Below, one piece after another: positions 1,966-62,336 of a DNA stretch of 64,000 nucleotides. A program made the translations under genes and the position numbers. The stretch's first letter is position 1, and every line of letters starts with the position of its first letter. Location of the stretch: NCBI GenBank assembly GCA_964489085.1, contig CAZAXO010000001.1:1483-65482 (forward strand), written 5' to 3'. Below the pieces are notes generated by a model. The model was not told the DNA's origin, did not search any database, and saw nothing but the letters and a program-made list of their open reading frames with translations. The stretch is from an uncultured Candidatus Bathyarchaeia archaeon (GTDB lineage: Archaea > Thermoproteota > Bathyarchaeia > 40CM-2-53-6 > DTGE01).

Positions 1966-2038
1966 TTTCTTTTATCAGATTTATTTTTTATTAGATAACA
2001 TAAATATATGCTATGTTATCTAATAAAAAATAAAAAAA

Positions 2039-12616: not shown

Positions 12617-12643
12617 ACTTTTCTAATCACTTTTTTTATTTTA

Positions 12644-12682
12644 TTTATATAAATATAAACAATTATCATATTTAAATATATA
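12644..12682 (-). promoter_or_regulatory. conserved TATA-rich promoter-like element (copy 1)
   Basis: TTTATATAAATATA(A)ACAATTATCATATTTAAATATAT lies 28 bp upstream of the 12616 start. A second copy at 18887..18925 matches in all but 2 positions. Confidence 0.45.
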
Positions 12683-12685
12683 GGT

Positions 12686-18884: not shown

Positions 18885-18886
18885 AA

Positions 18887-18925
18887 CTTTTTTATTTTTA
18901 TATAAATATAGACAATTATCATATT
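18887..18925 (-). promoter_or_regulatory. conserved TATA-rich promoter-like element (copy 2)
   Basis: Matches 12644..12682 in all but 2 of 39 positions. It sits directly upstream of the helicase gene and contains the palindromic ATATTTAAATAT. Confidence 0.45.
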
Positions 18926-18958
18926 TAAATATATGTTATGATTATACATATATTGAAC

Positions 18959-19843: not shown

Positions 19844-20168
19844 TTATTTCTATTCCTCCTCAAAATCGTGGCAAACCCTAAATAACCACATATCCATTTT
19901 ACACTCGTCGCAATAACCCATATTATTTGGGTTTAATGGATAATTTGTCCAATGAGCGCATCTTCCACATATCTTCCTTGAGTTAATCATTTTCTTCCCT
20001 CAAATCATTTACCATTTCCTTCAATTCTTTAGGATGAAACTTATAGTAAAAATCAGCCCAGTCTCTCACCATACAAGAAGTATGATCCATCATACAACCA
20101 GAAACCACATTAGTAATAGCTTCTCGTTCTTCTTCGGTAAATTCTTGTTTTGACATCTTTACCTCTTC

Positions 20169-21002
20169 TTATACATTTTCCTTTAATTTATGCTTATGTA
20201 GTCTAACAAATACCCTTATATCTGGATTAACCTTTCTCAAATATACTCTTCTGGCTTTCAATAATTCAAGATTAGATATTAAATTAACCCAAAATCTTTT
20301 AGTAAAAATAATAAATATCTTTCTCCATATCCCCTTATATTGTTTCATCAATTCATAATAATACCAATACGGATTTTTATCCCATTTAGGCTCCCAATAC
20401 CACTTAACCCATAAACCATTGTTTATCTCAGCTACCCACCGCCTTAAACAACTTATACACCATCCACACGATCTATGCTTATTATCGTAGCAAGACACCG
20501 TAAAATTTTCTAAATCCTCTACATCTCCACCTTTCTTAATATACTTTTTCAATAATTTAGTCTTTGTATACCTTCTAACTGGAAATTCAATTTTTACCTT
20601 CCTTTTAGTTTGTAATCCAAGAACATCGTCCCAACAATAAGAAATTATATTCTGAGCCATTTTCCTAAATTTATTAGTCTTATCCTTACTAGTTTCACCC
20701 CTGAGAGCACACAAATAAACTATATCCCCGTAAAAACTAGCTATTTCAATAAAGAATAAATTTCGTAAAGGTATATGAGCATTATCCAACTCAAATCCAA
20801 GTATACTACTTGCATCTACAATGATGAGCCTACCTCCGAATCCCCCAAGTTCATCAAACGCATTAATAATTTTTAACTCTTTTTCTTCGTATCTGGAACC
20901 TGTCTTAATGTATAGTAATATATCTGGTTCAAATAGGAAATTACATATAAAACTATCCATTCCACCTGAATACAGTAAGACGGTCTTTTTCTCACTTGAC
21001 AT
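20169..21002 (-). CDS. queC: 7-cyano-7-deazaguanine synthase QueC
   Basis: PP-loop VLLYSGGMDS, YIKTGSRYEEKE, and a C-terminal CGWCISC zinc site. Confidence 0.7.
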   Translation of the reverse strand: MSSEKKTVLLYSGGMDSFICNFLFEPDILLYIKTGSRYEEKELKIINAFDELGGFGGRLIIVDASSILGFELDNAHIPLRNLFFIEIASFYGDIVYLCALRGETSKDKTNKFRKMAQNIISYCWDDVLGLQTKRKVKIEFPVRRYTKTKLLKKYIKKGGDVEDLENFTVSCYDNKHRSCGWCISCLRRWVAEINNGLWVKWYWEPKWDKNPYWYYYELMKQYKGIWRKIFIIFTKRFWVNLISNLELLKARRVYLRKVNPDIRVFVRLHKHKLKENV

Positions 21003-21312
21003 TAATCATTTCCTCCCTAAAATGTATAATTAATTCACTAATGGCATGTTTATAAATCATACTACAATCCGTCGAAGTTTCTATTACGTATAAGTCATCA
21101 TCTAACCAATACATTTTTTTTATGTTATGAAAAAACTTAGGTTTAGGATATATACAATAATGTAACTCAACAAAATCTATTTTTTCTACATCTTCATCAG
21201 AGGTAAAAACAAAGAAACTAGATATATGATCACTCTCTTCTGCTTTCTTAAATAATCCCATTTTACATATATCCTTCAAAAAATCTATTATATTTTTTAC
21301 TGTGAGTCGCAT
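20992..21312 (-). CDS. hypothetical protein
   Basis: 106-aa ORF between queC and the membrane-protein gene. Confidence 0.3.
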   Translation of the reverse strand: MRLTVKNIIDFLKDICKMGLFKKAEESDHISSFFVFTSDEDVEKIDFVELHYCIYPKPKFFHNIKKMYWLDDDLYVIETSTDCSMIYKHAISELIIHFREEMINVK

Positions 21313-21649
21313 GGTCTAAAAATATATGTACATATATTATAAGTAGTATTCTAAGGATAATATCTACAATAATTAATTCATTTATAAAAACAATTACAAA
21401 TAGTAAAATAATAAAGGTAATAGTTGCTAAGAATCTATAACTATGTAAATATAAATGTAACTTACCTTTAAAGCCTAATAATTTATCTTGCGTATTTTTT
21501 TGCCATAAATCACTAACTATATATATGAGCATAATATCAGGCAAAAATGATATAATAACACCAATAAACCCAAAAATAATAAAAGATATAACTACAGTCA
21601 ATATAGTATTAATTATATCTAGCATTATTTTTATTCTTCTATTATTCAC
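21263..21649 (-). CDS. small polytopic membrane protein
   Basis: 128 aa with 3-4 predicted TM helices. Overlaps the GT gene start by 4 nt. Confidence 0.4.
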   Translation of the reverse strand: MNNRRIKIMLDIINTILTVVISFIIFGFIGVIISFLPDIMLIYIVSDLWQKNTQDKLLGFKGKLHLYLHSYRFLATITFIILLFVIVFINELIIVDIILRILLIIYVHIFLDHATHSKKYNRFFEGYM

Positions 21650-22620
21650 AGGACAACCCTATATTTAGATAATTTTTGAATATATTTAAATTCATTTATA
21701 TCTATTATCTTACCATCAAACAATCCAAACAATTTTATTAATCCTAACTTTATCCCGTACATAAATGCCCGAATCTTTAATTTAAAAGGCTGTCCCTTCA
21801 ACTTTATATTATTTATTATAGATAGTAACATACCAATAGGATCTAATCTTCTAAATAAATATATTATTATCTCATTTCTAAACATTAAATAATGTCTGAA
21901 CTTATCAAATTTAGTAATGAGCAACTCTACATTATGTTCAGCAATAGTACTAGGTTGAAATATACAATAAACATCCTTTCTAAATGCTGTATTACTAATA
22001 TCTTCATGGTAAACAAAAAACTCAGTATCAAACCAAAGTTCCTTCTCCTTAAACATCCAAACATCCAATAATACACAAGTAGTTATCATATGACCAATAC
22101 TTATTGATTCTGAAGGTATATCATCAATTTCACCTTTACGTATCGTATTATTAAAATGTTTATTATATTTACCGTAAAACCAAATTCTATTAGTACCACC
22201 GTACAACATTTTTGGACATACAGCATATGTTCTATATTTCTTAATAATATTAAGTAACATTGATATAGTATCTTTCCTAATATAGGAATCAGAATCACAT
22301 ATTAGCAAATACCTAGACACACATTCCCTTATTATTCTATTCTTACCGTAGGAAGCACCAAGATTGGAACCCGAATAAATAATATGAAAGTTTAGTTTTA
22401 TGTATTCAAATAATAGATTATATAACCTATTAATATCAATAGAACTATAACTATCATTAACTAACAGAATTACCTCCCCTATATAATTCCTTTCATATCT
22501 TAACGAATTAAGTAATAAACGTAAACCATTAAATTCATTATTAAACACAATACCTACAGTTATCCTATTCTCATTATACCAATATAAATCGAGGCCGGAT
22601 TTAGTAATGTTTATTTTCAT
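21646..22620 (-). CDS. family-2-like (GT-A fold) glycosyltransferase
   Basis: N-terminal VGIVFNNEF...LLLNSL, LLVNDSYSS, and a DxD-like CDSDS. Length 324 aa. Confidence 0.5.
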   Translation of the reverse strand: MKINITKSGLDLYWYNENRITVGIVFNNEFNGLRLLLNSLRYERNYIGEVILLVNDSYSSIDINRLYNLLFEYIKLNFHIIYSGSNLGASYGKNRIIRECVSRYLLICDSDSYIRKDTISMLLNIIKKYRTYAVCPKMLYGGTNRIWFYGKYNKHFNNTIRKGEIDDIPSESISIGHMITTCVLLDVWMFKEKELWFDTEFFVYHEDISNTAFRKDVYCIFQPSTIAEHNVELLITKFDKFRHYLMFRNEIIIYLFRRLDPIGMLLSIINNIKLKGQPFKLKIRAFMYGIKLGLIKLFGLFDGKIIDINEFKYIQKLSKYRVVL

Positions 22621-22635
22621 TTTAATCCCCTTTTT

Positions 22636-23952
22636 CTAAATGATATTTCTAAAATAGTCGGAACATCTCTGTATACAACGTATAGCATTTCTAATTATGA
22701 CTCCATTAACATTAAATTCACGAGATGAGAGTTCAAACTCAATTTTATTAAAATTCTTCAACTTTTCTTCATTACAACAATATTTCTCATTAATCCATAA
22801 TAAGTATTTTTTTTCATTTTCAGTGGCATCACAAAAACACAATCCACAGGTAGTACATTTCATAAGACCACATTTTTTACAGAAAGTTTTAATAGAAGAT
22901 GCTATAGTTATTGGGCTTCCACAGAACCAACAAATATGATCTTCAGATTCTTTTATTTCTCTGTTTCTTGCCCTAACACACTGTTTTAATCCAGTATCAT
23001 AAAAATTGACGTTTTTACCTCCCTTATGCATAACTTCTAACCTCGTTAATTTTTCTAAATCGTAATAGCAAGAAAGGTAACATCCATTACATTCCTCAAT
23101 TCTTTCTTTAAAAATCTTAACGTACCATTCAAATCCATACTTCTCTATACTACGGTTTAAATCGAATATATTAAAATCAAATGGCACCATATCCTCACAG
23201 GGCATAATCATGAGGTCGTTATTTACTACTAATCTATAAGGATAACTACAATGCCAACTCATATCCATAAATTTTGGTATATTTCTAATATATTCTTTTG
23301 TATTATGAATCAGAAGTTTATCATAATTATATAAAACATTCTTAACATCATCTATTATTCTATATTTCAGACGCGAATCGTTAATAGAAATAGTAGAATC
23401 GTAGTTTCCCATCAGACAATGTTTTCTATCGTCTGTACTATAATTATATACAGCAACTATAGTCCACACTTTTAGGCTGGTAAAATATCTGATAGTATCA
23501 AATAATTTTCCAATAGTCTTTTCTTCGTATAATAGATTTATGGAAACATCATCAAAATATTTTCTATATATATCAAACTTATCCTTAAAACCTTTGTAGG
23601 AATCTACACTTATAGTTATATTCTTAAGACCAGATTCACTCAACCTCATAGCAATAGATTCACTTAACTTACTACCATTAGTAACTATAGTGAAATCCAT
23701 TCCCAATGTATCACTGAGATATCCTATGACATCGTATATATGTTCATATTCCAATGGTTCACCCCCCATGATAACAATAAATTCAGACAAATTACTCATT
23801 ATTTCCAACGCATTTATAATATCTATAAAATTAGCATCCTTAGTCTTAAGAGATTTGGAAGAACAAAAAGGACAGTCATAACTACAATTTCTATTTGATA
23901 TAAACAAACAAGATTTAAACATCTTCTCTTTCATTCTAATTTTTTCTACCAT
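22636..23952 (-). CDS. radical SAM enzyme with C-terminal Cys-rich SPASM/twitch-like domain
   Basis: CSYDCPFC (Cx3Cx2C) at residues 23-30, a VIMGGEPLEY glycine-rich motif, and C-terminal CNGCYLSC...CWFCGSP...CKKCGLMKCTTCGLCFC. Confidence 0.6.
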   Translation of the reverse strand: MVEKIRMKEKMFKSCLFISNRNCSYDCPFCSSKSLKTKDANFIDIINALEIMSNLSEFIVIMGGEPLEYEHIYDVIGYLSDTLGMDFTIVTNGSKLSESIAMRLSESGLKNITISVDSYKGFKDKFDIYRKYFDDVSINLLYEEKTIGKLFDTIRYFTSLKVWTIVAVYNYSTDDRKHCLMGNYDSTISINDSRLKYRIIDDVKNVLYNYDKLLIHNTKEYIRNIPKFMDMSWHCSYPYRLVVNNDLMIMPCEDMVPFDFNIFDLNRSIEKYGFEWYVKIFKERIEECNGCYLSCYYDLEKLTRLEVMHKGGKNVNFYDTGLKQCVRARNREIKESEDHICWFCGSPITIASSIKTFCKKCGLMKCTTCGLCFCDATENEKKYLLWINEKYCCNEEKLKNFNKIEFELSSREFNVNGVIIRNAIRCIQRCSDYFRNII

Positions 23953-24066
23953 TTAAATCAACTCTGGTCCTTCGATATATGTTTTCATTTTACCATTAGG
24001 TACAAAAATACGACACGAATCACCGTGACTGTGAAATTCAATAGTATCCCATTCAATCTCATCCAT
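23953..24066 (-). CDS. 37-aa ORF translationally coupled to the radical SAM gene (candidate precursor peptide or small protein)
   Basis: MDEIEWDTIEFHSHGDSCRIFVPNGKMKTYIEGPELI. Its TAA stop directly abuts the ATG of the radical SAM gene. It is below the ORF-track size cutoff. Confidence 0.2.
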   Translation of the reverse strand: MDEIEWDTIEFHSHGDSCRIFVPNGKMKTYIEGPELI

Positions 24067-24226
24067 TTTTTAACGATCTACCAACTTAGGTTTCTTAATT
24101 TTATCCATTAGTTCATCGACTTCATCTGGAGATAATATAACCTGACTACCTTCTATTATTATCCTATAAAAATCTTTAAACGAACCACTCGTTAGCTTCT
24201 CAACATCAATCGGTATTTTTACCATA

Positions 24227-24535
24227 TTATCTCCTCGTTAATTCTTTATATTTCTCCATTGCTGTGTTAAAATCCAATCGATATAAGATTTTAAGCGTTC
24301 TAAGAAAGAAATAATTCAAACGACTGCTAGCTAATTCAAAATTCGTCTTTTCGGTAAACGACATTTTCAGTTCCAAAAACATTCTAGTCATTTCATCGAA
24401 AAATTGTTCGATTACGGCATCTCGTTCCTTTGGTGTTCTTTCGTTAAAATCCTCCATTAATTTTGAATCGTTAATGTAAATCGTTTTAACAGGAGTTTGA
24501 AACTTTTCAAACATTTTATCTAATTCTTCACCCAC
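24227..24535 (-). CDS. hypothetical protein
   Basis: 102-aa ORF. Confidence 0.3.
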   Translation of the reverse strand: MGEELDKMFEKFQTPVKTIYINDSKLMEDFNERTPKERDAVIEQFFDEMTRMFLELKMSFTEKTNFELASSRLNYFFLRTLKILYRLDFNTAMEKYKELTRR

Positions 24536-24660
24536 GATTTTTTATCCCTCTGACTTCTCAATAAATATTAACCAACGTGAATTTTTCCAATTCTTCATTT
24601 ATTCGCATTTTCTTTTTTACAATATAATAATACTCTAAAGAAATTTATATAATCAGACAA

Positions 24661-25230
24661 TCACCTATCGATTAAACTCAATATTTCACTCCTTAATTTG
24701 AGGTTATTAAGAGCATCTCCTTTAACGGAGGATGTAACCATTTTAACGTTTTCCTTCTTAACACCACGCATAACTTCACACAAATGAAGTGCTTCAATTA
24801 CAACCATAACCGACGCCGGTTTCAAATCTGACTCATAAATAAATTTACATATATCATTGGTCATTTTTTCTTGTATATTTAATCTATGAGCAAATTTGTC
24901 TACGATTCTAGATAGTTTCGATATACCAATTATATTACCTTCATTTGACAAATATGCTACATCGACCCTACCATAAAAAGGTAACATATGGTGTTCACAT
25001 ATGGAATAAAATTTTATATTTTTTGATATTACTAACTCAGAAGCTATATCTTCGTGTTTAAATACTTTTATTAGAGAATTATCGTCGTTATTATTATATC
25101 CATTGAAAATCTCTTCATACATTCTTGCTACTCTATTTGGAGTTTCCTTTATTCCCTCTCGTAACTCATCTGTACCTTCTATCTCTAAAAGTAAAGTTTT
25201 AATACATCTTCTAATTTTATCCAGATTCAT
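24661..25230 (-). CDS. folE: GTP cyclohydrolase I
   Basis: SICEHHMLPF, GISKLSRIVD, QEKMT and ALHLCEVMRGV motifs. Confidence 0.85.
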   Translation of the reverse strand: MNLDKIRRCIKTLLLEIEGTDELREGIKETPNRVARMYEEIFNGYNNNDDNSLIKVFKHEDIASELVISKNIKFYSICEHHMLPFYGRVDVAYLSNEGNIIGISKLSRIVDKFAHRLNIQEKMTNDICKFIYESDLKPASVMVVIEALHLCEVMRGVKKENVKMVTSSVKGDALNNLKLRSEILSLIDR

Positions 25231-26054
25231 TCCATACCAATAAATTTGTGTAGTTGAGGTGTAATACCCATAAAATTAAACTCTTTACTATATAAATCCT
25301 TATTTACGTCACTTGCGATTTTTGCTATAGTTTTTAAATACGTTCTCATATACCGTTTAGATTTTCCATCATACATCTTTACATACTTATCATTCGTTTT
25401 TTCGGTATTAATAGGTGATAAATAAAATGGAAATTCATATAAATAATTTTTTCTGATAAAGCTAAGTATTAGTTCAATATCTCTACTTACATGTTCGGGA
25501 TCAATCATGTATTTAAAGTTGACTTCTATATTTTCGTAACCATGGTGTAATAGTTCTTCCAATAAATGTATTGGTATCCTATAATTTGATTTCTGAGTTA
25601 TTGTATATATTAAATATCTACCGGATATAGTTTGTTTATACGGACTACCAATTTCGGTAAGTAAGGATAACGTACCGTTGGTTTCTATCTTGATATTAAA
25701 ATGCTTATTATTTTTTACGTGAGTATATACATATTGAGTTAATCTGACTATTTCATCCTTAAATAAAAGTGGTTCACCACCAGTAAATACTAAATGTCTA
25801 AAATGATACTTATTACACATATCATATAAATATTTTTGAAACGTTATACCTATTTTATCTAGTAAAAGACTATCTCTAGTAAAATCGGTGTCACAGTACG
25901 AACATTTCAAATTACATTTATTAAACCTTATAAATAAGCTTGGCATCCCAATATATTTCCCCTCTCCCTGTATGGAGAAGAATATGTCACTTACCTTATC
26001 TCTAATATCCTCTACATTAATCCAAGACATGTAATCACCCAAACACATTCCCAA
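25227..26054 (-). CDS. queE: 7-carboxy-7-deazaguanine synthase QueE (radical SAM)
   Basis: FSIQGEGKYIGMPSLFIRFNKCNLKCSYCDT and FTGGEPLL. 4-nt overlap with folE. Confidence 0.8.
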   Translation of the reverse strand: MGMCLGDYMSWINVEDIRDKVSDIFFSIQGEGKYIGMPSLFIRFNKCNLKCSYCDTDFTRDSLLLDKIGITFQKYLYDMCNKYHFRHLVFTGGEPLLFKDEIVRLTQYVYTHVKNNKHFNIKIETNGTLSLLTEIGSPYKQTISGRYLIYTITQKSNYRIPIHLLEELLHHGYENIEVNFKYMIDPEHVSRDIELILSFIRKNYLYEFPFYLSPINTEKTNDKYVKMYDGKSKRYMRTYLKTIAKIASDVNKDLYSKEFNFMGITPQLHKFIGME

Positions 26055-26493
26055 ATATTTTTTCTAATATACCATCCCTACGTAATTCAAAATTGAACCA
26101 ATCATAAGCCTCCTTTATTTCAACCTCCACACTAGACGTATCAGATTCGTATAATTTAACTGAAGTAAAAACCTGTAGATCTACAGGTCCGTTATATATC
26201 AAATCAAACATCATTTTATCAACAAGGATACATATAGCTGATGCGATATTTTCAGCAGTCGGATTAAACTTTATTACATTATTAAGGAATTTGTGATCAA
26301 ATCGATTTTCTATTTCTTTCTTAATTAAATTAAAATCTATAGCCATACCATTTTGCCAATAACAATTAATACCACCCTTAAGTTCAATAGTCACATGTCC
26401 ATACCAGGTGTGACCATGTAAATTTTTACATTTGCCTTTGTAATCTACTAATTTGTGCGCCGCACTAAATTTAAAATGTTTACATATTATCAT
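26035..26493 (-). CDS. queD: 6-carboxy-5,6,7,8-tetrahydropterin synthase QueD
   Basis: FKFSAAHKL...CKNLHGHTWYGHV (Cx5HGH) signature. Confidence 0.8.
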   Translation of the reverse strand: MIICKHFKFSAAHKLVDYKGKCKNLHGHTWYGHVTIELKGGINCYWQNGMAIDFNLIKKEIENRFDHKFLNNVIKFNPTAENIASAICILVDKMMFDLIYNGPVDLQVFTSVKLYESDTSSVEVEIKEAYDWFNFELRRDGILEKIFGNVFG

Positions 26494-26592
26494 GTTATAT
26501 CGAATTTTGGATATTTTAATAAATTTATAAAATTTTTTATAAATTTAAATATTTTTAAAATACAGGTCGAAACACATAAAAAAGAAAAAATT

Positions 26593-31648: not shown

Positions 31649-32599
31649 TTAAAATTCAAATAGTGTCGTCTGTTTTTCGTTAACAGATAATTTCCTAAGT
31701 TTACCGATTCCATTCTCCACCCTAACCCTAGAAAATCCATTTTTCTCATATAAAAACTCAAATAATTTTTCAAAGTCTGGTTTCTTCCTTGTTAGTTTAT
31801 AATTAGTATTTACATTAGGATTTAAATACATTCCCATAAGCCTATGATATAAATCGAAAAATTCTCCGTTTTTAAGCATCTTACCAGTTTTACATTCTAT
31901 CATAGCCTTATCAATAAAAGGAGCCTTAAATATATCATCATACTCCGTCACTGCCTTTACCGCCGTGTTAACACCAACCCCCTTTATACCAGAAAAATAA
32001 TCATTACCAGATAATATGGCAATAGATATAAGATCTTCACGTTTCAATCTTTTGTCATTCAAAACCTTAGCCAAAGAAATGAATTCTATTTTGTCTGCTT
32101 TCATAGCCAAATTTCTAACCAAACGTTTACCACCAAATAAGAGTATATCGAAGTCCTGACTACAAGCACAAAAGGCTTGATCTTTCATTGTTAGATAAGC
32201 ACATTGGGCATCACCTTCACTCGGAGATTGAATAGATTGTATACCCATTAAATCTAACAACTCTTTACCAGATTCTATTACCTTATCGGTAATATGTATC
32301 AAATCCTTATTTTTCTGTCTATACCACCTAAGTTTAGTTATCTTTTCATTACCGTCAAAACAGTAAATAGGTCTAATATCGTGTTCCAATAATTTTAAAT
32401 TTCTATAAAACAACCCAGATAAATGTGACGTAATATCACCACCGTAATTCATAAGGGGTTTTCCGTCAGAACCCCTTATGGCATGTAGGAATTGATAAAT
32501 AACGTTAAAAGCATCTACACTAACAGTCCTATTTATCAAACTACCCATTGTCAAGTCTCGTTTAGTAGACTCAGTCAAAACACCTATACCACTACCCAT
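31649..32599 (-). CDS. fen: flap endonuclease FEN-1 (XPG family)
   Basis: XPG-N GDITSHLSGLFYRNLKLLEHDIRPIYCFDG and XPG-I SPSEGDAQCAYL...SQDFDILLFGG, with an HhH-like region. Confidence 0.8.
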   Translation of the reverse strand: MGSGIGVLTESTKRDLTMGSLINRTVSVDAFNVIYQFLHAIRGSDGKPLMNYGGDITSHLSGLFYRNLKLLEHDIRPIYCFDGNEKITKLRWYRQKNKDLIHITDKVIESGKELLDLMGIQSIQSPSEGDAQCAYLTMKDQAFCACSQDFDILLFGGKRLVRNLAMKADKIEFISLAKVLNDKRLKREDLISIAILSGNDYFSGIKGVGVNTAVKAVTEYDDIFKAPFIDKAMIECKTGKMLKNGEFFDLYHRLMGMYLNPNVNTNYKLTRKKPDFEKLFEFLYEKNGFSRVRVENGIGKLRKLSVNEKQTTLFEF

Positions 32600-36446: not shown

Positions 36447-37181
36447 TTATTTTTTCGAATTTAAAAAACTAATTAAATTCGAGTCGTAATTACCATTTTT
36501 GTGTTCTTCAATTATTATATTAACGATATATTTGTATTCCTCAACGATTTCTTCAGAAAATCCATATCCCTTAAGATCTTCCATATATTCTTCCATTTTA
36601 AATATCATCCTATTAATACAATGTCCTCTATTATATTCGTATTCTTTATAATCACCGTTACAATCACAACAAAACCATTGAACCACACCAGATACCCATT
36701 GATTAATCACATCCTCAGCATATCCCTTCAAAACCTTCTCATCGTTAGTCCATGGATGAGAACCAATACAGTGTCTATAAACAGACGTAATATAAAGCTC
36801 CTTACCACATTCAGGATTTTGACAATAATGTTTTATATCCCTTATAATTGTATTTACACCAATGACTTCTTCCAATATGGTAGCAGATCTATTACTAGAT
36901 TCCATCCTTTCAGAAGCTACACGATTACGATCTTCCTCAGCCTGTCTTTTATAATTTTTAATACGAAAATACCTATATAAACCATACCCAATTGCAACCA
37001 TTATAATCAAAGCACACCATATTTGAAAAACAAAGATTATCACGTCTACATAAACAACTCCGGCAACTCCAAATATAAATGGATATTGAAGGAATAACAA
37101 CAACATAAAAAAAACTGCTATCATAAAAACAAAATTTGCATAAAACAAATTATCCAATCCTTTTATTTTACTTTCTCTCAT
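36447..37181 (-). CDS. membrane protein with Cys-rich cytoplasmic domain
   Basis: Two or three N-terminal TM helices, then CQNPECGK...CCDCNG...RGHC. Confidence 0.4.
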   Translation of the reverse strand: MRESKIKGLDNLFYANFVFMIAVFFMLLLFLQYPFIFGVAGVVYVDVIIFVFQIWCALIIMVAIGYGLYRYFRIKNYKRQAEEDRNRVASERMESSNRSATILEEVIGVNTIIRDIKHYCQNPECGKELYITSVYRHCIGSHPWTNDEKVLKGYAEDVINQWVSGVVQWFCCDCNGDYKEYEYNRGHCINRMIFKMEEYMEDLKGYGFSEEIVEEYKYIVNIIIEEHKNGNYDSNLISFLNSKK

Positions 37182-37805
37182 TTTTATCCAAAACCTTCAT
37201 GTAAATATAATTTTATTATATTATAATATAATTTTCAAAATTTATAAATCTTTTTTGATGTAGTAAAAAAAGATTTTTTTTAAATGTTTAAAAACAACCG
37301 ATTTTCAAGTTATGTTTATCTTTATAATTAACTAATATCTGACTCTTTTATTCATTATATTTCATATAAAATTCTAAATAAATATATTGATATTCCTTTT
37401 TAATGATTATATTAATTTATTTCAAATAGTATTGTACCTAAGAAAATATGTTTAAGTTTTTTTATTTTAATATTGGTATTGTTTTTTGATTACATTTTTA
37501 TCATAATATATAGTCTGTTAATGTGTATATATAAAAAACTTTTGGAGATATAAAAACATTTATAAACAATTGATATCTTAGCGTTTTTCGAATTTTGGAA
37601 ATAAATCTATTATATTACTATATTTAATATTTATATTTCTAAAATTAATTAATTAAATATAAGGGGTTTTTTTCTTTGAGTAAGTATTTATGATAAGTAT
37701 TTAATATATACACATATTTGATGTTGTATATTTTGGAGAATCTACTTGGAAATAGACATATAAAATCATTTGAATTAAAATTAAAAATTATTATGTATTT
37801 TTAAG

Positions 37806-38912
37806 TTAGAATAAGTAGTCGAATTTTTTAAGTATGTTTAGTTTTCTTGGGTCTATTTGTTTATAGTAATTTTTAAAATCATCACTTTGTAAACATAATA
37901 GTATATAAGGGCAAAAATCAAAACATTTGTTTGACGGTTTTCTTTTGAATTTACATAGATTAATGTCGTTGATGAGTTCTTTTTTTAGATTATCATACTC
38001 TCTTAACATATCGATATTAAATGGTATATATTTAAATGTATTTTTCCAGTCTTGTATGTATAAAACGAAACCAGATGTTGGAGTTAGTCCTTTTAGATCT
38101 TCCAATATGTTTATACCATCTTTAGTTACAACCTTATATATATTCTTATTTGAGGATAGTAATCTGAAATAAGAGCCAAGTTCGAAGTTTATTGTTTTTT
38201 TATCGTAGTTGGTATAGATTTTAGGTAAGCTTTTTATATATTCGTCAGTTACTTTTGGATTGTCTCTTAAATTATAATATTTTGGTTTTCCGGTTTTGTA
38301 ATCTCCTATTGCTATAGTGTCGGTTGTTTTTCTATGTATCACATCTATAACTCCGACATCACAATTATTGTGATTTTCTATTCTTAGCTCTCTATATATT
38401 GGTTTTATGTATTTCCAAGAACGATTATTTCCAATATCTTCTCGGATTTTAAAGATTCTATACGTTTCGTAGTTAGCATATTTTAGAAACAGATACTTAT
38501 ATGTTAATATTTTTTTTTCGTTCTCAGGTACAAAGCTTCTACATTTTAGATATATATAGTTTCTAACTTTTAACTTATTTGTGTATGTTGTTAATAATTT
38601 TCTACTTAACTTATTCCATACTTTATTAAATACGAAATGAGCGTTCGAACCGAAGATACCGGAGTTCGAGTTTCTACCATCGTTAATAAAGACATTTTTT
38701 ACTCTAGCGTAATCGAATTGTTTTGGACAAATTGGATATTTACCTACCCAAGACTTACTTAAATATTTTAGTTTATTAATCATATAATCTATTGTATTTA
38801 GATTAAACGGTATATAAACTAATTTGTCTCTTAGTAAATTATTATATAATTGTAGGTATTCATCTCTGGTTAGATTATATTGTTTTTGTATTAAATTATA
38901 ATTAGAGGTCAT
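37806..38912 (-). CDS. Cas4/RecB-family PD-(D/E)xK nuclease-like protein
   Basis: VIDVIHRK...IAIGDYKTGK (the D...DYK motif), a QxxxY-like segment, and a C-terminal Cys cluster CKFKRKPSNKCFDFCPYILLC typical of Fe-S Cas4-type nucleases. Confidence 0.4.
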   Translation of the reverse strand: MTSNYNLIQKQYNLTRDEYLQLYNNLLRDKLVYIPFNLNTIDYMINKLKYLSKSWVGKYPICPKQFDYARVKNVFINDGRNSNSGIFGSNAHFVFNKVWNKLSRKLLTTYTNKLKVRNYIYLKCRSFVPENEKKILTYKYLFLKYANYETYRIFKIREDIGNNRSWKYIKPIYRELRIENHNNCDVGVIDVIHRKTTDTIAIGDYKTGKPKYYNLRDNPKVTDEYIKSLPKIYTNYDKKTINFELGSYFRLLSSNKNIYKVVTKDGINILEDLKGLTPTSGFVLYIQDWKNTFKYIPFNIDMLREYDNLKKELINDINLCKFKRKPSNKCFDFCPYILLCLQSDDFKNYYKQIDPRKLNILKKFDYLF

Positions 38913-38914
38913 TA

Positions 38915-41617
38915 CTATACTAATGCTTGTAACTCTGTATCTTGAAATATATCTAAATATTGTATACCTAATTCTTTTAACGATGTTTCTAATGGAGATA
39001 AAGTCTTTTTTATTAATCTGTCGTAATCTATGGCTTCTATTACATCATCCGGTAGGTAATCTTCGTCATCTAAGGCTACTTTATCTGTTTTGGCATATTT
39101 AGGTGGTATTTTATTTTCGTCTGTATAAATAAAATGTATAATTGAGTTCTTTCCAAGATTACTTAGACCATCCCATAAATAAGCCCACTGATTTGTCCAT
39201 CTTGCTGCGTCAATATGTTCTACTTTTGATAAGACTTTTCTACCTGTTTTTTTATCTATTCTAAAATACTCGTCAAATCTTTTTGTTGCGGTAACTCTAA
39301 TACAGAGATCCTTTATTGGATATTTACCGGATATTATTTTATTAATTTCCTTTCTTATATATGATTTTATTAGTTTTATTATTTCTCTGTCAGATTTATC
39401 TTCATGTATTATAGATTGTACTTTCTTTATTATTTTATTTCCGACTATAGGTATATTACTCTTTATGTGACCGGTAATTTCTATTTCTGGTTCTTTTAAT
39501 ATAATAGATTTATTTAATATAAACTTTACTATAACTCCTTCACTATATTTCTTTTTTGCTCCAGTGTCATCACTACCTTTTATTCTAACCATAAAATAGG
39601 TCGAAGATATGGTTTCTGGTCTAATAAACAACCTATTTATTTTTAGGTTGAATTTATTCGTTACATATGTTTTATAGAAATGGTTTAGTCTCTTTTCTAT
39701 TTTTCTGCTTTCTTTTATCATATCTTCTGCTGACTTACTTTTTAATTGTATTTTTAATGAATCGGTATCTCCATATATTACTTTTATACCCATATGTATT
39801 AGTAATTTCTTTCCATTTATCATCATAAATCTTGCTGTTACTGTGATAGTCTCAGCTATTACTTCGTTAAATAATCTCCAGTTTTCATTTCCGAATATGC
39901 CGTATATAGTATTTGTTAAATATTTTATTACTGTTTGAGTATCATTAGTTAATTGAATTTCAAACTCCAGTTCTATTATTATTGTTTTGTTACCTTTTTC
40001 TTTTTCTTTTTTCACTTTTTCTTCTAGTTTAAATAACTCTTCTTTTATATTATCTCTATATTCTATTAGCTCTAGTAAACAGCTTGCTATTAGTGATGTT
40101 TTGTCCCGTCTGAAGTATGTATTATTTGGTGTGCTTATATAATCATACGGTAAATTTTTTAATTCTTTTTCGGTCAAATCTTTTCCTATGTATGTATCAA
40201 ATCCTATATTGAATGAAATCATTATCATCGGATATAGTGATTTGAAATCAAATGAACATACTTTTCTTGAACGACCGAAAACTGCTGTGTCTACATATCC
40301 TCCTATATATCCTATTTTCTCTCGTTCTCTTGCTGATGGTAATACTATATTTCTATTCTTAGCCTTAACCAATAGTAATTGATCTATTACTTGCAAATTA
40401 GATAATATATTTTCATAGTTGACACCAGTCATACCTCGTATTCCACTAAAGTATTGTTCTTGTCTCAATTTCTCGTAAATTTCATAATCTATAAGGGTAT
40501 CTATAGCATTATAATAAACTAATAATTTTAATTTATTCTTATATGCTGTATTGAATGAACATCCTAATTTTATTTTTCCATATTTTATTACTGCTAGTCC
40601 GGCATTACCTAGACTTCCACTGACTGTTTTTGTTTGTCTACTCAGATATGCATCTCTTGTATCAAATAGTATTTGACCTTTTATTACATATTCGTTAGTA
40701 TAGTTGTTCAAATATACTGCGTTTAGAGGTGAAAGAGAGAAGTAATCTAGTCTTTTAGTTCTTGTTTTTTCATTGGTTATTTGTCTATTTAATACTTTCA
40801 TTCTGTTTATCATGTATGGAATATCGAATTTTTTTATGTTCCATCCCCATATTCCATCTCCGTTCGTATATTTATGGTATTTCAGGAACCCTCTGAACAT
40901 ATCTACTTCTTTATTATATATATGTATTATCCACTTGTATTTTTTACCGTGTGGATTTACTAATGATACGTGTTTTGTTATTTCATCGTTTTTGGATTTT
41001 ACTAATCCTTTTTTAAATACGAAGGTATTTGATGTTTTTGTAAACGAATCTATTACATTTATTACCGTTACTGGTTTTAGTGCTTTATCAACATCTGGTA
41101 TTTTATTTCCTTCTTCTGTTAGGGTTTCAATATCTAAATGTAGTCGTCTTTTATTGATGAAGAAGTTACATGGTTTTATTAACGAGTAATGTATCTTTCT
41201 TTTTCCAATTGGTACAGATATTCCATTTAGTACGTTAGCATCTATTTGAACTCGTATTTTATATGGTATATCATCTTCGTAACATTCTTCTGTTGGAAAG
41301 TAATCTCTTATACCGTGTGTCTTATTTGCTATACCGCTTACATCTGTTGAATTCCGTACGTATATTTTTTTTAATGGTAAACCATCATAGGATCTATATT
41401 TTCGTTTTGTCTTCTTGTTTTGTTTTTCTATTTTTACTATTCTATCATCTGTAGGTGGTGTACCTTCGTTACTAGTATAAAAATATGGTATGTGACCATG
41501 TGTAGTTATCATATGTTTCTTTTTATTTTTGTCTCTACCAAACCAGAATACTAACTCCCCTTTACCTTTTATTGATTTCTTTTCTACTAAATGAATAGAC
41601 AAATCCATACGTTCCAT
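38915..41617 (-). CDS. polB: family-B DNA polymerase
   Basis: Exo I LHLDIET, motif A DFKSLYPMIM, motif B KYLTNTIYGIFG and motif C YGDTDS. Length 900 aa. Confidence 0.9.
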   Translation of the reverse strand: MERMDLSIHLVEKKSIKGKGELVFWFGRDKNKKKHMITTHGHIPYFYTSNEGTPPTDDRIVKIEKQNKKTKRKYRSYDGLPLKKIYVRNSTDVSGIANKTHGIRDYFPTEECYEDDIPYKIRVQIDANVLNGISVPIGKRKIHYSLIKPCNFFINKRRLHLDIETLTEEGNKIPDVDKALKPVTVINVIDSFTKTSNTFVFKKGLVKSKNDEITKHVSLVNPHGKKYKWIIHIYNKEVDMFRGFLKYHKYTNGDGIWGWNIKKFDIPYMINRMKVLNRQITNEKTRTKRLDYFSLSPLNAVYLNNYTNEYVIKGQILFDTRDAYLSRQTKTVSGSLGNAGLAVIKYGKIKLGCSFNTAYKNKLKLLVYYNAIDTLIDYEIYEKLRQEQYFSGIRGMTGVNYENILSNLQVIDQLLLVKAKNRNIVLPSAREREKIGYIGGYVDTAVFGRSRKVCSFDFKSLYPMIMISFNIGFDTYIGKDLTEKELKNLPYDYISTPNNTYFRRDKTSLIASCLLELIEYRDNIKEELFKLEEKVKKEKEKGNKTIIIELEFEIQLTNDTQTVIKYLTNTIYGIFGNENWRLFNEVIAETITVTARFMMINGKKLLIHMGIKVIYGDTDSLKIQLKSKSAEDMIKESRKIEKRLNHFYKTYVTNKFNLKINRLFIRPETISSTYFMVRIKGSDDTGAKKKYSEGVIVKFILNKSIILKEPEIEITGHIKSNIPIVGNKIIKKVQSIIHEDKSDREIIKLIKSYIRKEINKIISGKYPIKDLCIRVTATKRFDEYFRIDKKTGRKVLSKVEHIDAARWTNQWAYLWDGLSNLGKNSIIHFIYTDENKIPPKYAKTDKVALDDEDYLPDDVIEAIDYDRLIKKTLSPLETSLKELGIQYLDIFQDTELQALV

Positions 41618-44126: not shown

Positions 44127-45353
44127 TTAATCTTCCATTGTTTGTTCGAATATATCGTCTAGGTCATCTAGGTCTGTTAGTTCTTCTATTTCTTCTTCGT
44201 CTAATTCATCCTCGTTATCTTCGTCCTCTTCTTCGTCTTCTATTATTTCTTCTATTTCTTCGTCTAAATCGTTTGATATAGTTACTTCTGCTTTAGCTTT
44301 GGGTTTAGGTTTAGGTTTTTGTTCTGGTACTTCTCTCTTTTGTTTTGTAATCATCATAAACCCTACTCCCTGAAAGACAATGTCACCCCAATCTCCTGTC
44401 CACTTATCTCCTACTTTGGTTTCTACTTGTTGCATTTTGAAAAATAGATACATATTTGTACCTTCTCCAAAATCTAATGGTAGGTTTCTATTCCACCATA
44501 CTTTATACGGTTTAGTTTCGTTTCCATCTGCATCCATGTAACCCATGTTTGGATGTGATACTGCTATACTTGGAGATATTTCGTCTGTTCCAGGATCTAC
44601 AGCCGTGACAAACACTTCAGCCATAAATTCCTCGTCTGTCCCTTTTTTGTGTTCTTGTGTCCAGCTCACTTTTTTATTGAAAATCTTTTTTATATCCTTA
44701 AGTAGTACAGTCTGTTTTGAAAATAGTCTCGATGCTGACTTATTGGATATTCTGTTTAGTAAACTCATATGTTTCTTATTTTCTATGTTTATATTTGTTA
44801 GATTAGTTGCCTCTCTTGCTTCTAGGTATAGGGTTTTATTCTTTTTATCTTCTGCTATTGTCTTAAATTCTGTTTTAACCCATTCACTGTGTATAACTTC
44901 TTTAAATTTATCAGAGTTTGGATTTGCGAACTCGTTTCCTACTGATATACTTACTATCCTTACTGACTTACCGAGTTTTTCTTTAGTTACATTTTTTTCG
45001 AATACACCGATACCACCTAAATTCCATAGATATGAATATTCAGGTAAATCCTCACCTAATTTTTTATTTGGATTTCCTTCCCTGTTTTTAGCCCAGAAGT
45101 ACAGTGGTATCTTATCTACTACTTCACCAATTTCATTTATAACTTCTCTTACGTATCCCTTTTTTACTGCATTCTCTGGATCTTTTTCGTATTCTGAAAG
45201 TGCTTCAGCCCGTTTCGATGCTACCCAGTTGAAGTGACCGGTGTCTTTAAATATTTTCACGTATACGGCCTCTGTACCTATATCTGATAAATGTCTTTTC
45301 TTTTCGGCAAACAACCTTCCGGTTACCGTATCTTCTATTTCTTCGTCACTCAT
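44127..45353 (-). CDS. protein with long acidic C-terminal tail (possible DNA-binding/SSB-like or structural protein)
   Basis: 408 aa ending in EEIIEDEEEDEDNEDELDEEEIEEL. It is the last gene of the polB operon. Confidence 0.35.
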   Translation of the reverse strand: MSDEEIEDTVTGRLFAEKKRHLSDIGTEAVYVKIFKDTGHFNWVASKRAEALSEYEKDPENAVKKGYVREVINEIGEVVDKIPLYFWAKNREGNPNKKLGEDLPEYSYLWNLGGIGVFEKNVTKEKLGKSVRIVSISVGNEFANPNSDKFKEVIHSEWVKTEFKTIAEDKKNKTLYLEAREATNLTNINIENKKHMSLLNRISNKSASRLFSKQTVLLKDIKKIFNKKVSWTQEHKKGTDEEFMAEVFVTAVDPGTDEISPSIAVSHPNMGYMDADGNETKPYKVWWNRNLPLDFGEGTNMYLFFKMQQVETKVGDKWTGDWGDIVFQGVGFMMITKQKREVPEQKPKPKPKAKAEVTISNDLDEEIEEIIEDEEEDEDNEDELDEEEIEELTDLDDLDDIFEQTMED

Positions 45354-45571
45354 ATTTGGATATTCTTTCCTAACTTCTTCCTCAAGCTCTTCTGCTCGTT
45401 CGAATAGGTCTTTTTCGTTTACTGTTTTTTTTTTAGCCCAAACTTTTATTATCTCATATTTTTCGGTTTTTTCTTTTACTATGTTTAACCACCTTTTGTA
45501 TTTTCTTATTATCGGTTTTTAATTAAATTTTTTTATAAATTTTAAAAATTTTTTTTATATTTAAATTTTGA

Positions 45572-45608
45572 ATTATAACTTAATAATCAACTATTATTAA
45601 GTTATAAT
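45572..45608. promoter_or_regulatory. 37-bp palindrome in divergent intergenic region
   Basis: ATTATAACTTAATAAT-caact-ATTATTAAGTTATAAT. The 16-bp arms are perfect inverted repeats, and the palindrome lies at the minus/plus strand-switch point. Confidence 0.5.
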
Positions 45609-45686
45609 AAAAGTTTTAAATTTTATAATTTTTTTATATAATTTATTATTAAATTAACTTTCCAAATTGACATAGGTGGGATACAT

Positions 45687-46499
45687 TTGATTTATGTAGT
45701 TAATTACGACATGGATGAAGAAGATATAAGCAAAATCTCGGATTTTAAGTATAATAATATATTTATAAACTGTCTAGACCATAGTACAAAGGGTATAGAA
45801 AATGTACTCATTAATACATTTGCTGAGCCAAACAGAAATTTCTTTTCAGGTAAAATATGTAGGTATATAATTAGAAACGTATATTTTGCTAATAATAAGT
45901 CTATAGATATAGTTTTCCGAAATGTTGGTAGGATTATATATCTTATTAATATTAGTTATGAACAGGAGAAGTACATATATTCTAAACACAAAAATAAATA
46001 TAGGTATTATAAGTGTTCATTTAAAAGGAGGGATGATTCGTTTACACTTATGGTTAAACGGGTTATGTTTTGGAATGATATGAACAAATTGAGTTTATTG
46101 GAAGGACAAAGTTATGATATAGGTTATTTATTGAAATTAATTAGTTATAACCTACCGGAGTCTGTGTTATCTGAAACGGACTTTCTTAATAATCTTGAGC
46201 TTATAATGGATTTAGGTAAGTATGTTAATATGATAAATAAAGAGAATATATTTGTATCTTTACTATTGAATTTTGTTACACCTTCTTATATAACTAAATT
46301 TAGATATCCTCCTAAACATAGAAAAGGAAAAAAGAAGAAGGAGGAATCTGAGTTAAAAACTAAATATGGTGGCAATATAGAGGATATGGCTCGTGATAAA
46401 ATGATTGAATATTTTAAATATAGAGACTCTGATTTTGGAAATATTAATACATCGAAAAAAGCCAAAAAAAATAACGATAATACAATGAGTTTGATATAA
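45687..46499 (+). CDS. hypothetical protein
   Basis: 270-aa ORF, the first gene of the plus-strand block. Confidence 0.4.
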   Translation: MIYVVNYDMDEEDISKISDFKYNNIFINCLDHSTKGIENVLINTFAEPNRNFFSGKICRYIIRNVYFANNKSIDIVFRNVGRIIYLINISYEQEKYIYSKHKNKYRYYKCSFKRRDDSFTLMVKRVMFWNDMNKLSLLEGQSYDIGYLLKLISYNLPESVLSETDFLNNLELIMDLGKYVNMINKENIFVSLLLNFVTPSYITKFRYPPKHRKGKKKKEESELKTKYGGNIEDMARDKMIEYFKYRDSDFGNINTSKKAKKNNDNTMSLI

Positions 46500-47099: not shown

Positions 47100-48059
47100 T
47101 TGGATGAAGTTAACGTTTTGTTAATGGAAAAATATAGGAGTAGTGATTTTTCTGATGGTGCGTTATTGGGTCAAGATAGGATATTGAGGTCGTGTAGAAA
47201 TTTTGTTAAGAAGGGTGAAATACCACATCTTATATTATCTGGACCTGCCGGTACCGGAAAAACAACTACTGCTTTGGCTTTGGCTTTACGTATTAGTGGA
47301 CCTGCTAATACTAAAATACTTAATGCGAGTGATGAAAATAGTATTAAGGTTATACGAGGACCAGTTAAAGAATTTATTATGGCTGATTCTGATTTGTCGG
47401 ATATATTAAAGACTCTGATATTGGATGAAAGTGATAATATGTCATCTAAGGCTCAACAGGGACTTCGTAGAATGATAGAAGAACATAGTGATTCTTTTAG
47501 GCTTATTATGACGTGTAATTATATAAACCAGATTATAGATCCCATTGTATCTAGGTGTGTAAATTTGGTATATAGACCTATTCCTAAGATTTTAGTTGTT
47601 AACAGATTAAAAAAGGTTGCTAAAGCTGAATCTATTAAAATTACTAAGAAACAACTTAATATAGTTGCTACTGTGTTTAGGGGTGATATGCGTAAGTGTT
47701 ATAATATTTTAGATTCTATTCGTCTTGGTGCTGATTTTGGTGCATTAATAAATGAAATAAGTCCCGTTACTTATTTTAAGTTAATATTATCTAACAATAT
47801 AGTCGGTATTAAGGATTATATTGATAAAAATATATTTAGTAAGTATGATATGAAATATTTGATTGATTTGTGTATAGATTTGATTGTTAGATTAATTAAA
47901 TCTGATAAAGTTAACGATAAAAGTAAATTTAGTTTGTCTAATGCTAAACATTTGGTTGGTCTTTTGACCGAGGCAGATTATAGGTTGTCTATTGGTTCTG
48001 AATATTCTGCTGTAGCCTTCTGGATAGCTGTAAAGTATAATAATTTGGTGTTATTATAA
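47100..48059 (+). CDS. rfc: replication factor C small-subunit-like clamp loader (AAA+)
   Basis: Walker A LSGPAGTGKTTTALALA, Walker B ILDESDNM, and the RFC-specific SRC motif (IDPIVSRC). Confidence 0.75.
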   Translation: MDEVNVLLMEKYRSSDFSDGALLGQDRILRSCRNFVKKGEIPHLILSGPAGTGKTTTALALALRISGPANTKILNASDENSIKVIRGPVKEFIMADSDLSDILKTLILDESDNMSSKAQQGLRRMIEEHSDSFRLIMTCNYINQIIDPIVSRCVNLVYRPIPKILVVNRLKKVAKAESIKITKKQLNIVATVFRGDMRKCYNILDSIRLGADFGALINEISPVTYFKLILSNNIVGIKDYIDKNIFSKYDMKYLIDLCIDLIVRLIKSDKVNDKSKFSLSNAKHLVGLLTEADYRLSIGSEYSAVAFWIAVKYNNLVLL

Positions 48060-58271: not shown

Positions 58272-58370
58272 AGTGAAATATTCTCCATTGGTTAATTACT
58301 TTTTTGTAGGAATTCTATTATATTAATAATACTGGGGATTATATATAAAACTTTTTGATTTCCTGTTCTG

Positions 58371-58494
58371 AGAATTCCAATGTACTCCCCCTACCTTCCC
58401 TTTTTTTAGGGTAGTATTACTCCGGTTGTATACGTAAATGTAGAGTGTCAGCGACCAGAGTCAGTACCCGTCAGTAAATGTACATTGGAATTCT
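58371..58494. repeat. 15-bp perfect inverted repeat (AGAATTCCAATGTAC / GTACATTGGAATTCT) flanking a 94-bp GC-richer core
   Basis: Arms at 58371..58385 and 58480..58494. The core contains the CCCTA..TAGGG hairpin and three GTCAG repeats. It lies in a 545-bp ORF-free region. Confidence 0.5.
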
Positions 58495-58816
58495 TGAGAT
58501 TATCTATTTTTTTATAAATATGAACACACATTAATCTTATAGCGTGATTGTCATATCGATCGTGAAACTACTTCTCAAATTATTACTATATAATTTTGCG
58601 GGAAAAAATTATAATGTTATAATTTTCTGTATGTATATATATTATAGTAATATATTACATTATTGATATTATTATGATAGAAATAGTTGGGGTATGTACT
58701 GTCATCTATATAACGGTGGTATATAGACTATAATCCTATAATTATAAGGTTATAATTTATGGTTACAATAAAAAAAATATAATTGAGAATAAATAAGTTA
58801 TATCTTTAGTAGAAAA

Positions 58817-61703: not shown

Positions 61704-61884
61704 TTAATTTTTTGGTTATATATCTACAATGTATGTTTACGTTATTTATAACATTATTACGTTTCATCTACTTTCATAATTGTAAACTTTAACATTGTAA
61801 AATTTTTTATAATTTTTAAATAAATTTCCAAAAATATAAATTTTGATTTTTTCATCTAATTCCTGTAGAACTACTTTTTATGGT

Positions 61885-62035
61885 ATTATGAAAAAACATA
61901 ATATATTATGGAATTTCATAATATTTATAAGGTAAAATTATGTTTTTTCATAATATATTTAAATCAGTATTATGTAAACTCATAATATTTATAAATTGAT
62001 ATTATGTAAGAACATAATATTTAAATATGTTAATT
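61885..62035. promoter_or_regulatory. array of about five palindromic CATAATAT / ATATTATG iterons in a divergent intergenic region
   Basis: Elements seen: cataatatattatg (a perfect 14-bp palindrome), attatg-N6-cataatat, tattatg-N6-cataatat and atattatg-N6-cataatat. The region lies between minus-strand and plus-strand gene blocks. Confidence 0.5.
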
Positions 62036-62075
62036 GTTTATATTTATATAAAAATAAAAAAATTTGGAGGTCAAA

Positions 62076-62336
62076 ATGTTAACCATTAATGATGAGTTGA
62101 TAACTCAAGAAGAATTATCTAAATTATATGAAACATCTATATCTTATTTTAAGGAATTATATCCAGATTCCTTTAAACCATGTTTAATGGTTTGTACATG
62201 GCTTAGTGGAAATTTTCCGGTTTTTTGTGTTGAAAAAAGTAAATTGGAGGAATCTGTTGAGTTTAATTCGTTGTGTAGTATGTGTTGTGAAAGAGAATGG
62301 TGCTTTAGAAATGATCACTCTGAGGAGGACACATAA
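62076..62336 (+). CDS. small Cys-rich protein (C..WCF..H..EE family)
   Basis: A GGAGGT Shine-Dalgarno site lies 5 nt upstream of the ATG at 62076. The tracked ORF starting at 62064 begins with TTG. The protein ends in CCEREWCFRNDHSEEDT. Confidence 0.45.
   Translation: MLTINDELITQEELSKLYETSISYFKELYPDSFKPCLMVCTWLSGNFPVFCVEKSKLEESVEFNSLCSMCCEREWCFRNDHSEEDT

Follow-up and report, generated by a model that had tools for sequence, protein, structure and literature searches.

Whether a long palindrome between two divergent sets of replication genes marks an origin of replication, serves as an operator or does neither is the question raised by a locus in contig CAZAXO010000001.1, which comes from an assembly assigned to an uncultured Candidatus Bathyarchaeia archaeon. 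The stretch analysed (the window) comprises 64,000 nucleotides, positions 1,483 to 65,482 of that contig. The palindrome, ATTATAACTTAATAAT-CAACT-ATTATTAAGTTATAAT, occupies 37 bp at 45572..45608, with no strand attributable to it. A leftward operon that includes a family B DNA polymerase (PolB) begins on one side of it, and a rightward operon that includes a small-subunit-like ATPase of replication factor C (RFC) on the other. A first-pass annotation, made from the letters alone, had put it forward as a candidate replication origin, either a cruciform or similar to an origin recognition box (ORB), or as an operator for bidirectional promoters. The reading favoured here, at a probability of about 0.5, is a paired operator or upstream promoter element through which a symmetric DNA-binding protein co-regulates the two operons.

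The sequence and coordinates given for the palindrome in that annotation are exact. Its left arm (45572..45587) and right arm (45593..45608) are complementary at 16 of 16 bases about the spacer CAACT (45588..45592), and the A/T homopolymer flanks are there too, as T7-T8 runs at 45525-45531, 45547-45554 and 45630-45636. The palindrome is not a product of chance in AT-rich DNA. Arms of at least 16 bp have P=0.0008 when the 204-bp gap is shuffled 5000 times with dinucleotides preserved, and P=0.0014 when its 138-bp core (5% GC) is shuffled in the same way; across all 41 non-coding segments of the window (8 kb), shuffles lead to an expectation of 0.003 such palindromes versus the 2 observed. No second copy of the full arm with fewer than two mismatches is present in the window, match counts being at the chance level. 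When the arms are extended to 43 nt they are 77% complementary. Beyond the perfect 16 bp, though, complementarity is about 63% against about 50% expected from composition, and the extension was discounted as evidence.

Each arm has a symmetry of its own. It is a 7-2-7 pseudo-palindrome, symmetric at 6 of 7 positions, and the arms are exact reverse complements of each other with centres 21 bp apart, i.e. two helical turns. The left arm, ATTATAA-CT-TAATAAT at 45572..45587 (dyad site 1), would be an upstream element of the leftward promoter, and the right arm, ATTATTA-AG-TTATAAT at 45593..45608 (dyad site 2), of the rightward one. In 68.5 kb (the window plus a 4.5-kb extension from the same contig in another assembly), the consensus TTATWA-N2-TWATAA occurs five times, all five in non-coding DNA (37213, 45573, 45594, 58609 and 58742), compared with 1.07 on average when the sequence is shuffled in 200-bp blocks (P=0.003). 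Of the copies outside the palindrome, TTTATTATATTATAAT at 37212..37227 has a TTTATAAA box (37241) on one side and the start of gene 36447..37181 on the other. The two others, ATTATAATGTTATAAT at 58608..58623 and ATTATAAGGTTATAAT at 58741..58756, share a 545-bp non-coding gap (58272..58816) upstream of the 58271 operon; 29 bp from the first of these is a looser copy, ATTATTACTATATAAT at 58579..58594, that matches only ATTAT-N6-ATAAT. In the related contigs used for comparison (L004, L006, L007, L008, L009, L010 and L016) the consensus likewise occurs only in gaps that precede genes, for the most part in pairs spaced by 21-25 bp (2175 and 2198 in L006, 5426 and 5449 in L010, 81 and 106 in L007), with further copies at 349 and 414 in L016, 14210 in L006, 12768 in L007 and 10514 in L008. 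A 14-mer, TTATTAAGTTATAA, is common to the right arm in the window and a promoter in L010. This regulon-like recurrence at other promoters gives moderate support to an operator function.

The position of the arms relative to promoter boxes is also pertinent. The sequence TTTATAAA is found 22 times in the window, with 13 of the 22 inside the 13% that is non-coding; such boxes are mostly 24-60 nt before start codons and have A-rich sequence preceding them. From archaeal promoter geometry, the one at 45532..45539 on the minus strand, 50 nt from an ATA start, is the predicted TATA box of the leftward operon, and TTTATATA at 45633..45640 on the plus strand, 46 nt before a TTG start, that of the rightward operon. 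Transcription is predicted to start near 45508 (leftward) and 45664 (rightward), and with these starts the palindrome would span roughly -64 to -100 and -56 to -92, respectively, upstream of and between both promoters. A TTTATAA(A) box is present 50-85 nt upstream of the homologue of the first leftward gene in every relative. In six aligned promoters the invariant GTTAT of each arm is 32-41 nt upstream of an invariant TTTAT-A box, and thus each arm resembles an upstream element belonging to the nearer promoter. What emerges is a first sketch of the promoter grammar of this lineage, a paired 16-bp dyad some 40 nt upstream of a TTTATAAA box.

The divergent arrangement of the two genes next to the palindrome, which encode proteins of 270 and 451 amino acids (aa), is common to three related lineages. 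In L016, whose gene product is ~39% identical and whose layout is the same, the gap contains a different perfect palindrome, TATTAAATAATAAC-N10-GTTATTATTTAATA, with 14-10-14 geometry (shuffle P=0.003), at an offset from the gene start of 89-126 compared with 90-126 in the window. In a MAFFT alignment the columns of the two palindromes coincide, with their axes about 5 bp apart. The L016-arm 14-mer TATTAAATAATAAC recurs exactly at a second promoter in L006, L007, L008 and L010. In L006 a co-directional gene block that includes ParB_N replaces the divergent 270-aa side, and only the arm that adjoins the homologue of the 451-aa gene is retained. Homology between L006:2168..2190 and L016:383..430 begins at the promoter-proximal arm and breaks at the loop of the palindrome, which is then a module junction.

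The favoured arrangement would be as follows. Two 16-bp dyad sites, back to back and 21 bp apart centre to centre, would occupy the shared upstream region of divergent TATA-box promoters of archaeal type, the leftward promoter driving the operon that runs from the 451-aa gene through PolB to a PD-(D/E)XK nuclease, and the rightward one driving that which runs from the 270-aa gene through DUF2284 to RFC. Each arm would serve the nearer of the two promoters as its upstream element. A dimeric protein of symmetric build, virus- or host-encoded, would bind the DNA at both sites on one face of the helix, and both replication-gene operons would be switched on or off together. Here the TATA assignment, the transcription starts, the protein binding and the direction of regulation are all inferred. 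If they prove to be binding sites, the dyads would mark out a small regulon that couples the PolB and RFC operons, and provide a handle for finding its regulator.

Several points weigh against this reading. In L004/L009, the nearest relative with the same layout, the best palindrome is 10-3-10 (P=0.27). L007, a close relative of L016, retains 11 of the 14 pairs, with the changes clustered in one arm; therefore perfect symmetry is not required. Conservation alongside the flanking genes, which the first-pass annotation had made a test of its reading, has a divided outcome, with a different palindrome in L016 and 11 of 14 pairs in L007, and absence from L004/L009. It would seem to be the dyad sites and their position that are conserved, not the exact complementarity of the two sites. 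Alignments are not robust in DNA so rich in A+T, and the dyad motif was defined post hoc in DNA of 87-95% A+T. The looser ATTAT-N6-ATAAT, for which the stricter consensus was substituted, is no commoner than other spacings. Perfect arms of 16 bp also exceed the length a protein needs. Among the flanking proteins none has a recognisable DNA-binding domain, and the cognate protein was not identified; single-sequence AlphaFold models of the 270-aa protein and of a 93-aa protein of the same operon are unusable (pLDDT, the predicted local distance difference test score, being 35 and 44). A TrmB-family gene at 63800..64087 has nothing to link it to the palindrome. Comparative and motif evidence favours the operator for bidirectional promoters that had been proposed, and the want of a binding protein and the absence of the palindrome from one of the three related lineages do not.

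The proposal of an origin can be examined through strand skew. Raw GC skew tracks gene orientation, and therefore gene strand was regressed out: per-gene plus-strand skew was regressed on gene strand and on side of a breakpoint that was scanned over the window and its 4.5-kb extension. The best breakpoint for GC and AT skew and for their third-codon-position counterparts (GC3 and AT3) is alike, 37.0-38.0 kb, corresponding to the gap 37182..37805. As mutational bias would predict, third codon positions show the stronger position effect (GC3 r=+0.17, AT3 r=-0.21), and the side-of-breakpoint model beats one of gene class (left and right codon usage) in four of four skew measures. When genes were bootstrapped, the median breakpoint was 37.0 kb (95% range 34.5-37.0 kb) on a 500-bp grid whose points from 37.0 to 38.0 kb are equivalent, and none of 500 replicates fell at 45-46 kb. 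Gene by gene between 31.6 and 52.2 kb, AT3 on the plus strand ranges from +0.11 to +0.36 on the left of this gap and from -0.07 to -0.48 on its right to about 52 kb, regardless of gene strand. The change is abrupt, from GC3 -0.43 and AT3 +0.24 in gene 36447..37181 to GC3 +0.44 and AT3 -0.14 in gene 37806..38912. Its polarity, with the plus strand G+T-enriched rightward, is the origin polarity of bidirectionally replicated genomes. The gap itself is 624 bp of non-coding DNA with 19% GC, and includes an inverted repeat of 21 nt (37521/37695, 90%) and a palindrome with 11-bp arms at 37246..37276. It is the best origin candidate in the contig, about 8 kb from the palindrome at 45.6 kb. Separation of gene-strand from position-dependent skew is what puts the likely origin at 37.2-37.8 kb.

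An origin at the palindrome itself, whether cruciform or an ORB-like initiator site in an easily melted unwinding element beside replisome genes, has points in its favour. The palindrome is between two replication-gene operons, in the AT-richest 140 bp of the 68.5 kb (45518..45657, GC 4.3% versus 10.7% for the runner-up) and in its least stable 100-bp duplex window (45556..45655), so that the easily melted DNA for which the first-pass annotation suggested looking is indeed present. As single-stranded DNA it folds at -13.7 kcal/mol, which is stable for its composition (z=-5.8). Set against this, the skew switch is elsewhere, the outcome which that annotation had itself said would tell against its origin, and the genes flanking the palindrome have AT3 values of -0.40 and -0.21 with no change of sign across it. 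In archaeal ORB and mini-ORB origins, inverted repeats flank the unwinding element and their consensus has a G-rich element. The window resembles them in having inverted repeats in a very AT-rich gap beside replication genes, but the arms here are 5 bp apart and do not flank the unwinding element, each holds a single G or C so that a G-rich element is absent, there is one pair only, and neither a skew switch nor an adjacent orc1/cdc6 accompanies it; the ORB-like proposal is not supported on these grounds. No Orc1/Cdc6, Rep or similar initiator family, nor an MCM-like gene, was found in the flanking open reading frames (ORFs) or in the approximately 50 scanned across the window, though the 270-aa protein or a 624-aa protein of the rightward operon, to neither of which a family is assigned, may be a novel initiator. 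Because skew is indirect evidence, an origin at 45.6 kb is retained as an outside chance. A long palindrome in AT-rich DNA beside replisome genes is not in itself an origin. Equally improbable is that the palindrome extrudes as a cruciform in vivo, to provide a second (e.g. late or recombination-dependent) replication start or a preferred breakpoint for module exchange between related viruses; of these versions, the break in L006/L016 homology at the loop hints at the latter.

Two further explanations dispense with a regulator. According to one, which is unlikely, the arms provide core promoter elements only, their TTATAA-bearing outer ends being TATA boxes (or -10 hexamers if the host were bacterial). 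In keeping with this, GTTATAAT agrees with TTTATAAA in 6 of 8 letters, including the whole TTATAA core, and promoters in this lineage often have doubled TTATAA boxes. A scan for sigma-70-type promoters also picks out a mirror pair, TTAATA-17-TATAAT, on both strands (plus 45580..45608 and minus 45600..45572, 10 of 12 matches). Hits of this type in the region number 15 against 6.5 in shuffles, which is weak evidence, and a divergent bacterial pair was discounted since the replisome genes are of archaeal type. The arms are, moreover, 78-89 nt from the start codons with better TTTATAAA and TTTATATA boxes 46-50 nt away, as at most promoters here, and the positionally equivalent palindrome in L016 is without TTATAA. 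The other explanation, somewhat less likely again, is that the palindrome is a structural by-product, a quasi-palindrome perfected by template-switch mutation that has no sequence-specific function or is only a recombination-prone module junction. The axis shift between the window and L016 though their surroundings align, the restriction of the differences between L016 and L007 to an adjacent cluster in one arm, the break in L016/L006 homology exactly at the loop and the absence from L004 would all accord with such an origin of the symmetry. Function is what is pointed to by the recurrence of the dyad motif elsewhere, its distance from the TATA box being constant across promoters, and by long perfect palindromes at the same offset in two lineages with only ~39% protein identity.

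A paired operator or upstream promoter element would have company among known archaeal systems. Dyad operators or upstream sites of archaea and their viruses include TrmB sites (the Thermococcales glycolytic motif, TGM), Lrp-family boxes, Ptr2 sites, and the operators of F55 in Sulfolobus spindle-shaped virus 1 and of SvtR in Sulfolobus islandicus rod-shaped virus. Like these operators and upstream activating sites, the putative sites are dyads of about 16 bp, paired at an integral number of helical turns near TATA boxes and the associated transcription factor B recognition elements, common to divergent transcription units and recurrent at several promoters of one genome. Unlike them, they lack a known binding protein, their half-site TTATWA is almost pure A/T and TATA-box-like, and the two in the window are exact reverse complements, making a 37-bp palindrome longer than protein recognition requires. 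By analogy, the resemblance would be a functional one, and an element of an ordinary kind, in a poorly sampled virus lineage, is the most likely identity of the palindrome.

A different array in the same DNA is relevant here. In the divergent gap 61704..62063, five dyads of the form (T)ATTATG-N6-CATAAT(A) repeat about every 32 bp over 61884..62023, the first two of them 20 bp apart. The Tandem Repeats Finder score is 130 and the count was reached by no shuffle; TTTATAA or TTTAAAT follows four of the five copies. The array is upstream of a small plus-strand gene block that ends in the TrmB-family regulator gene 63800..64087, which runs just past the end of the window, and looks like an operator array or genetic switch. 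It shares with the palindrome the ATTAT/ATAAT half-sites, a divergent intergenic setting and association with TTTATAA/TTTAAAT; therefore the element would appear to use dyad operators. It differs in its half-site spacing (N8 rather than N6), in having five tandem copies instead of two inverted ones, and in being upstream of the small-gene block rather than of replication genes. This array and the sharp skew switch at 37.2-37.8 kb are more notable than the palindrome.

As for the flanking operons, the divergent layout described in the first-pass annotation is correct, with a minus-strand PolB gene (38915..41617) and a plus-strand RFC-like gene (47100..48059), and of the gap bounds it gave (45523..45686) the right one stands. 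The left one needs to be re-set. The first leftward gene, 44127..45482 on the minus strand, was previously called as 408 aa from an ATG at 45353. The 43 codons upstream of this ATG (window 45354..45482, minus strand) continue the frame and can be aligned to N-terminal sequence from four relatives, and the extension contains no ATG, GTG or TTG. The gene, of 451 aa, probably begins at a non-canonical ATA (45482..45480), or else a base-call error is present. An AGGTGG ribosome-binding site (45489..45494, minus strand) 6 nt before the ATA mirrors the AGGTGG (45674..45679, plus strand) 7 nt before the TTG start, at 45687, of the 270-aa gene. With the 451-aa frame open and homologous up to about 45482, the true non-coding gap is therefore about 45483..45686, not far from the bounds first given.

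The leftward operon has five genes, encoding the 451-aa protein (with an acidic C-terminal tail and of no assigned family), a 460-aa protein with a weak match to a Sak4-like ATPase, a 348-aa protein, PolB and the PD-(D/E)XK nuclease. The rightward operon also has five, separated by gaps of 0 bp: the 270-aa gene (45687..46499, plus strand, family likewise not assigned), DUF2284, the RFC small-subunit-like ATPase, the 93-aa gene and the 624-aa gene. Protein-database searches with the 270-aa protein retrieved only itself, and tblastn revealed homologues, partial ones, where L004 and L016 are cut off. Sequence and profile searches against the PDB were uninformative for the 451-aa, 460-aa, 348-aa and 624-aa proteins, and SSB-like or PCNA-like identities have no test in their favour.

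Other candidate roles for the palindrome were set aside. Both neighbouring genes begin at the gap and neither ends there, which disposes of an intrinsic terminator or RNA hairpin; a scan of the palindrome region yielded no terminator-like site, and Rfam no match either locally with permissive E-values or, at the gathering threshold, across the window, where tRNAs were also not found. As a recombinase or protelomerase target the asymmetric 5-nt spacer is unfit, 6-8 bp or none being needed, and no integrase, recombinase or telomere-resolvase family is represented in the neighbouring ORFs. The single pattern match to the palindrome in IMG/VR, from a giant-virus bin (L017), follows a stop codon in unrelated GC-richer sequence and was dismissed as a chance AT-rich hairpin. 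The second palindrome in the window with arms of at least 16 bp is of a different character. It is the longest there (1980..2034; 23-bp perfect arms, 9-nt loop), has A/T runs at its ends, lies between the co-directional minus-strand genes 841..1965 and 2039..3424, and looks terminator-like or RNA-hairpin-like.

The replisome and repair genes, RFC, PolB, FEN1, Hel308 and XPF-like, are of archaeal type (archaeal or eukaryotic for those other than RFC and PolB). The best matches of RFC are the archaeal RFC small subunit (1e-41), T4 gp44 (1e-19) and bacterial gamma/tau (1e-6), and PolB is nearest, at ~24% identity, to that of haloarchaeal tailed viruses. Also present are a uracil-DNA glycosylase (14455..15054), an ERCC4/XPF-like nuclease (15967..16776), a Hel308-like helicase with a helix-hairpin-helix domain (16773..18884) and a FEN1/XPG nuclease (31649..32599). 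Primase, capsid and terminase genes, like those for Orc1/Cdc6 and MCM, were not recognised among the ORFs scanned. We infer an archaeal virus or virus-like element from a poorly sampled, uncultivated lineage. Its relatives are a few short metagenomic contigs, some from marine sediment, with 40-56% protein identity. GenBank phages include no close DNA relatives, IMG/VR searched with four single proteins and two alignments gave no useful ones, and GTDB genomes gave none. A full set of genes of queuosine/archaeosine type for 7-deazaguanine synthesis, at 18959..26493, suggests DNA modification by the element: TGT-like (18959..19843), QueC (20169..21002), FolE (24661..25230), QueE (25227..26054) and QueD/PTPS (26035..26493), with a glycosyltransferase (21646..22620) and a radical-SAM protein (22636..23952) among them.

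The Logan assembly of the contig spans window position 10395 to 68493. Its tail shows no overlap with the start of the window that would indicate circularity. There is only an 85-bp repeat, at 82% identity, near both of its ends (window 10220..10304 and extension 68410..68493, i.e. L018:14882..14965), which may be the cause of the break in that assembly. Within the 58272..58816 gap, where two of the dyads and the looser copy are located, there is a TTTATAAA box at 58511 and a GC-richer stretch at ~58400..58500 with repeated CTGAC motifs, which has no Rfam match and could be a leader or small RNA. A promoter cassette of ~50 nt, TATTTAAATATGnTAATTGTnTATATTTATATAAAnAAAATAAAAAAA, occurs in three near-identical copies (12617..12685, 18885..18958 and 62010..62063), the genes that they precede being 12335..12616, 16773..18884 (which encodes the Hel308-like helicase) and 62064..62336. 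A further palindrome with 13-bp arms, TAAATTTATAAAA-TT-TTTTATAAATTTA at 26520..26547, is made up of two TTTATAAA boxes and lies upstream of the QueD gene.

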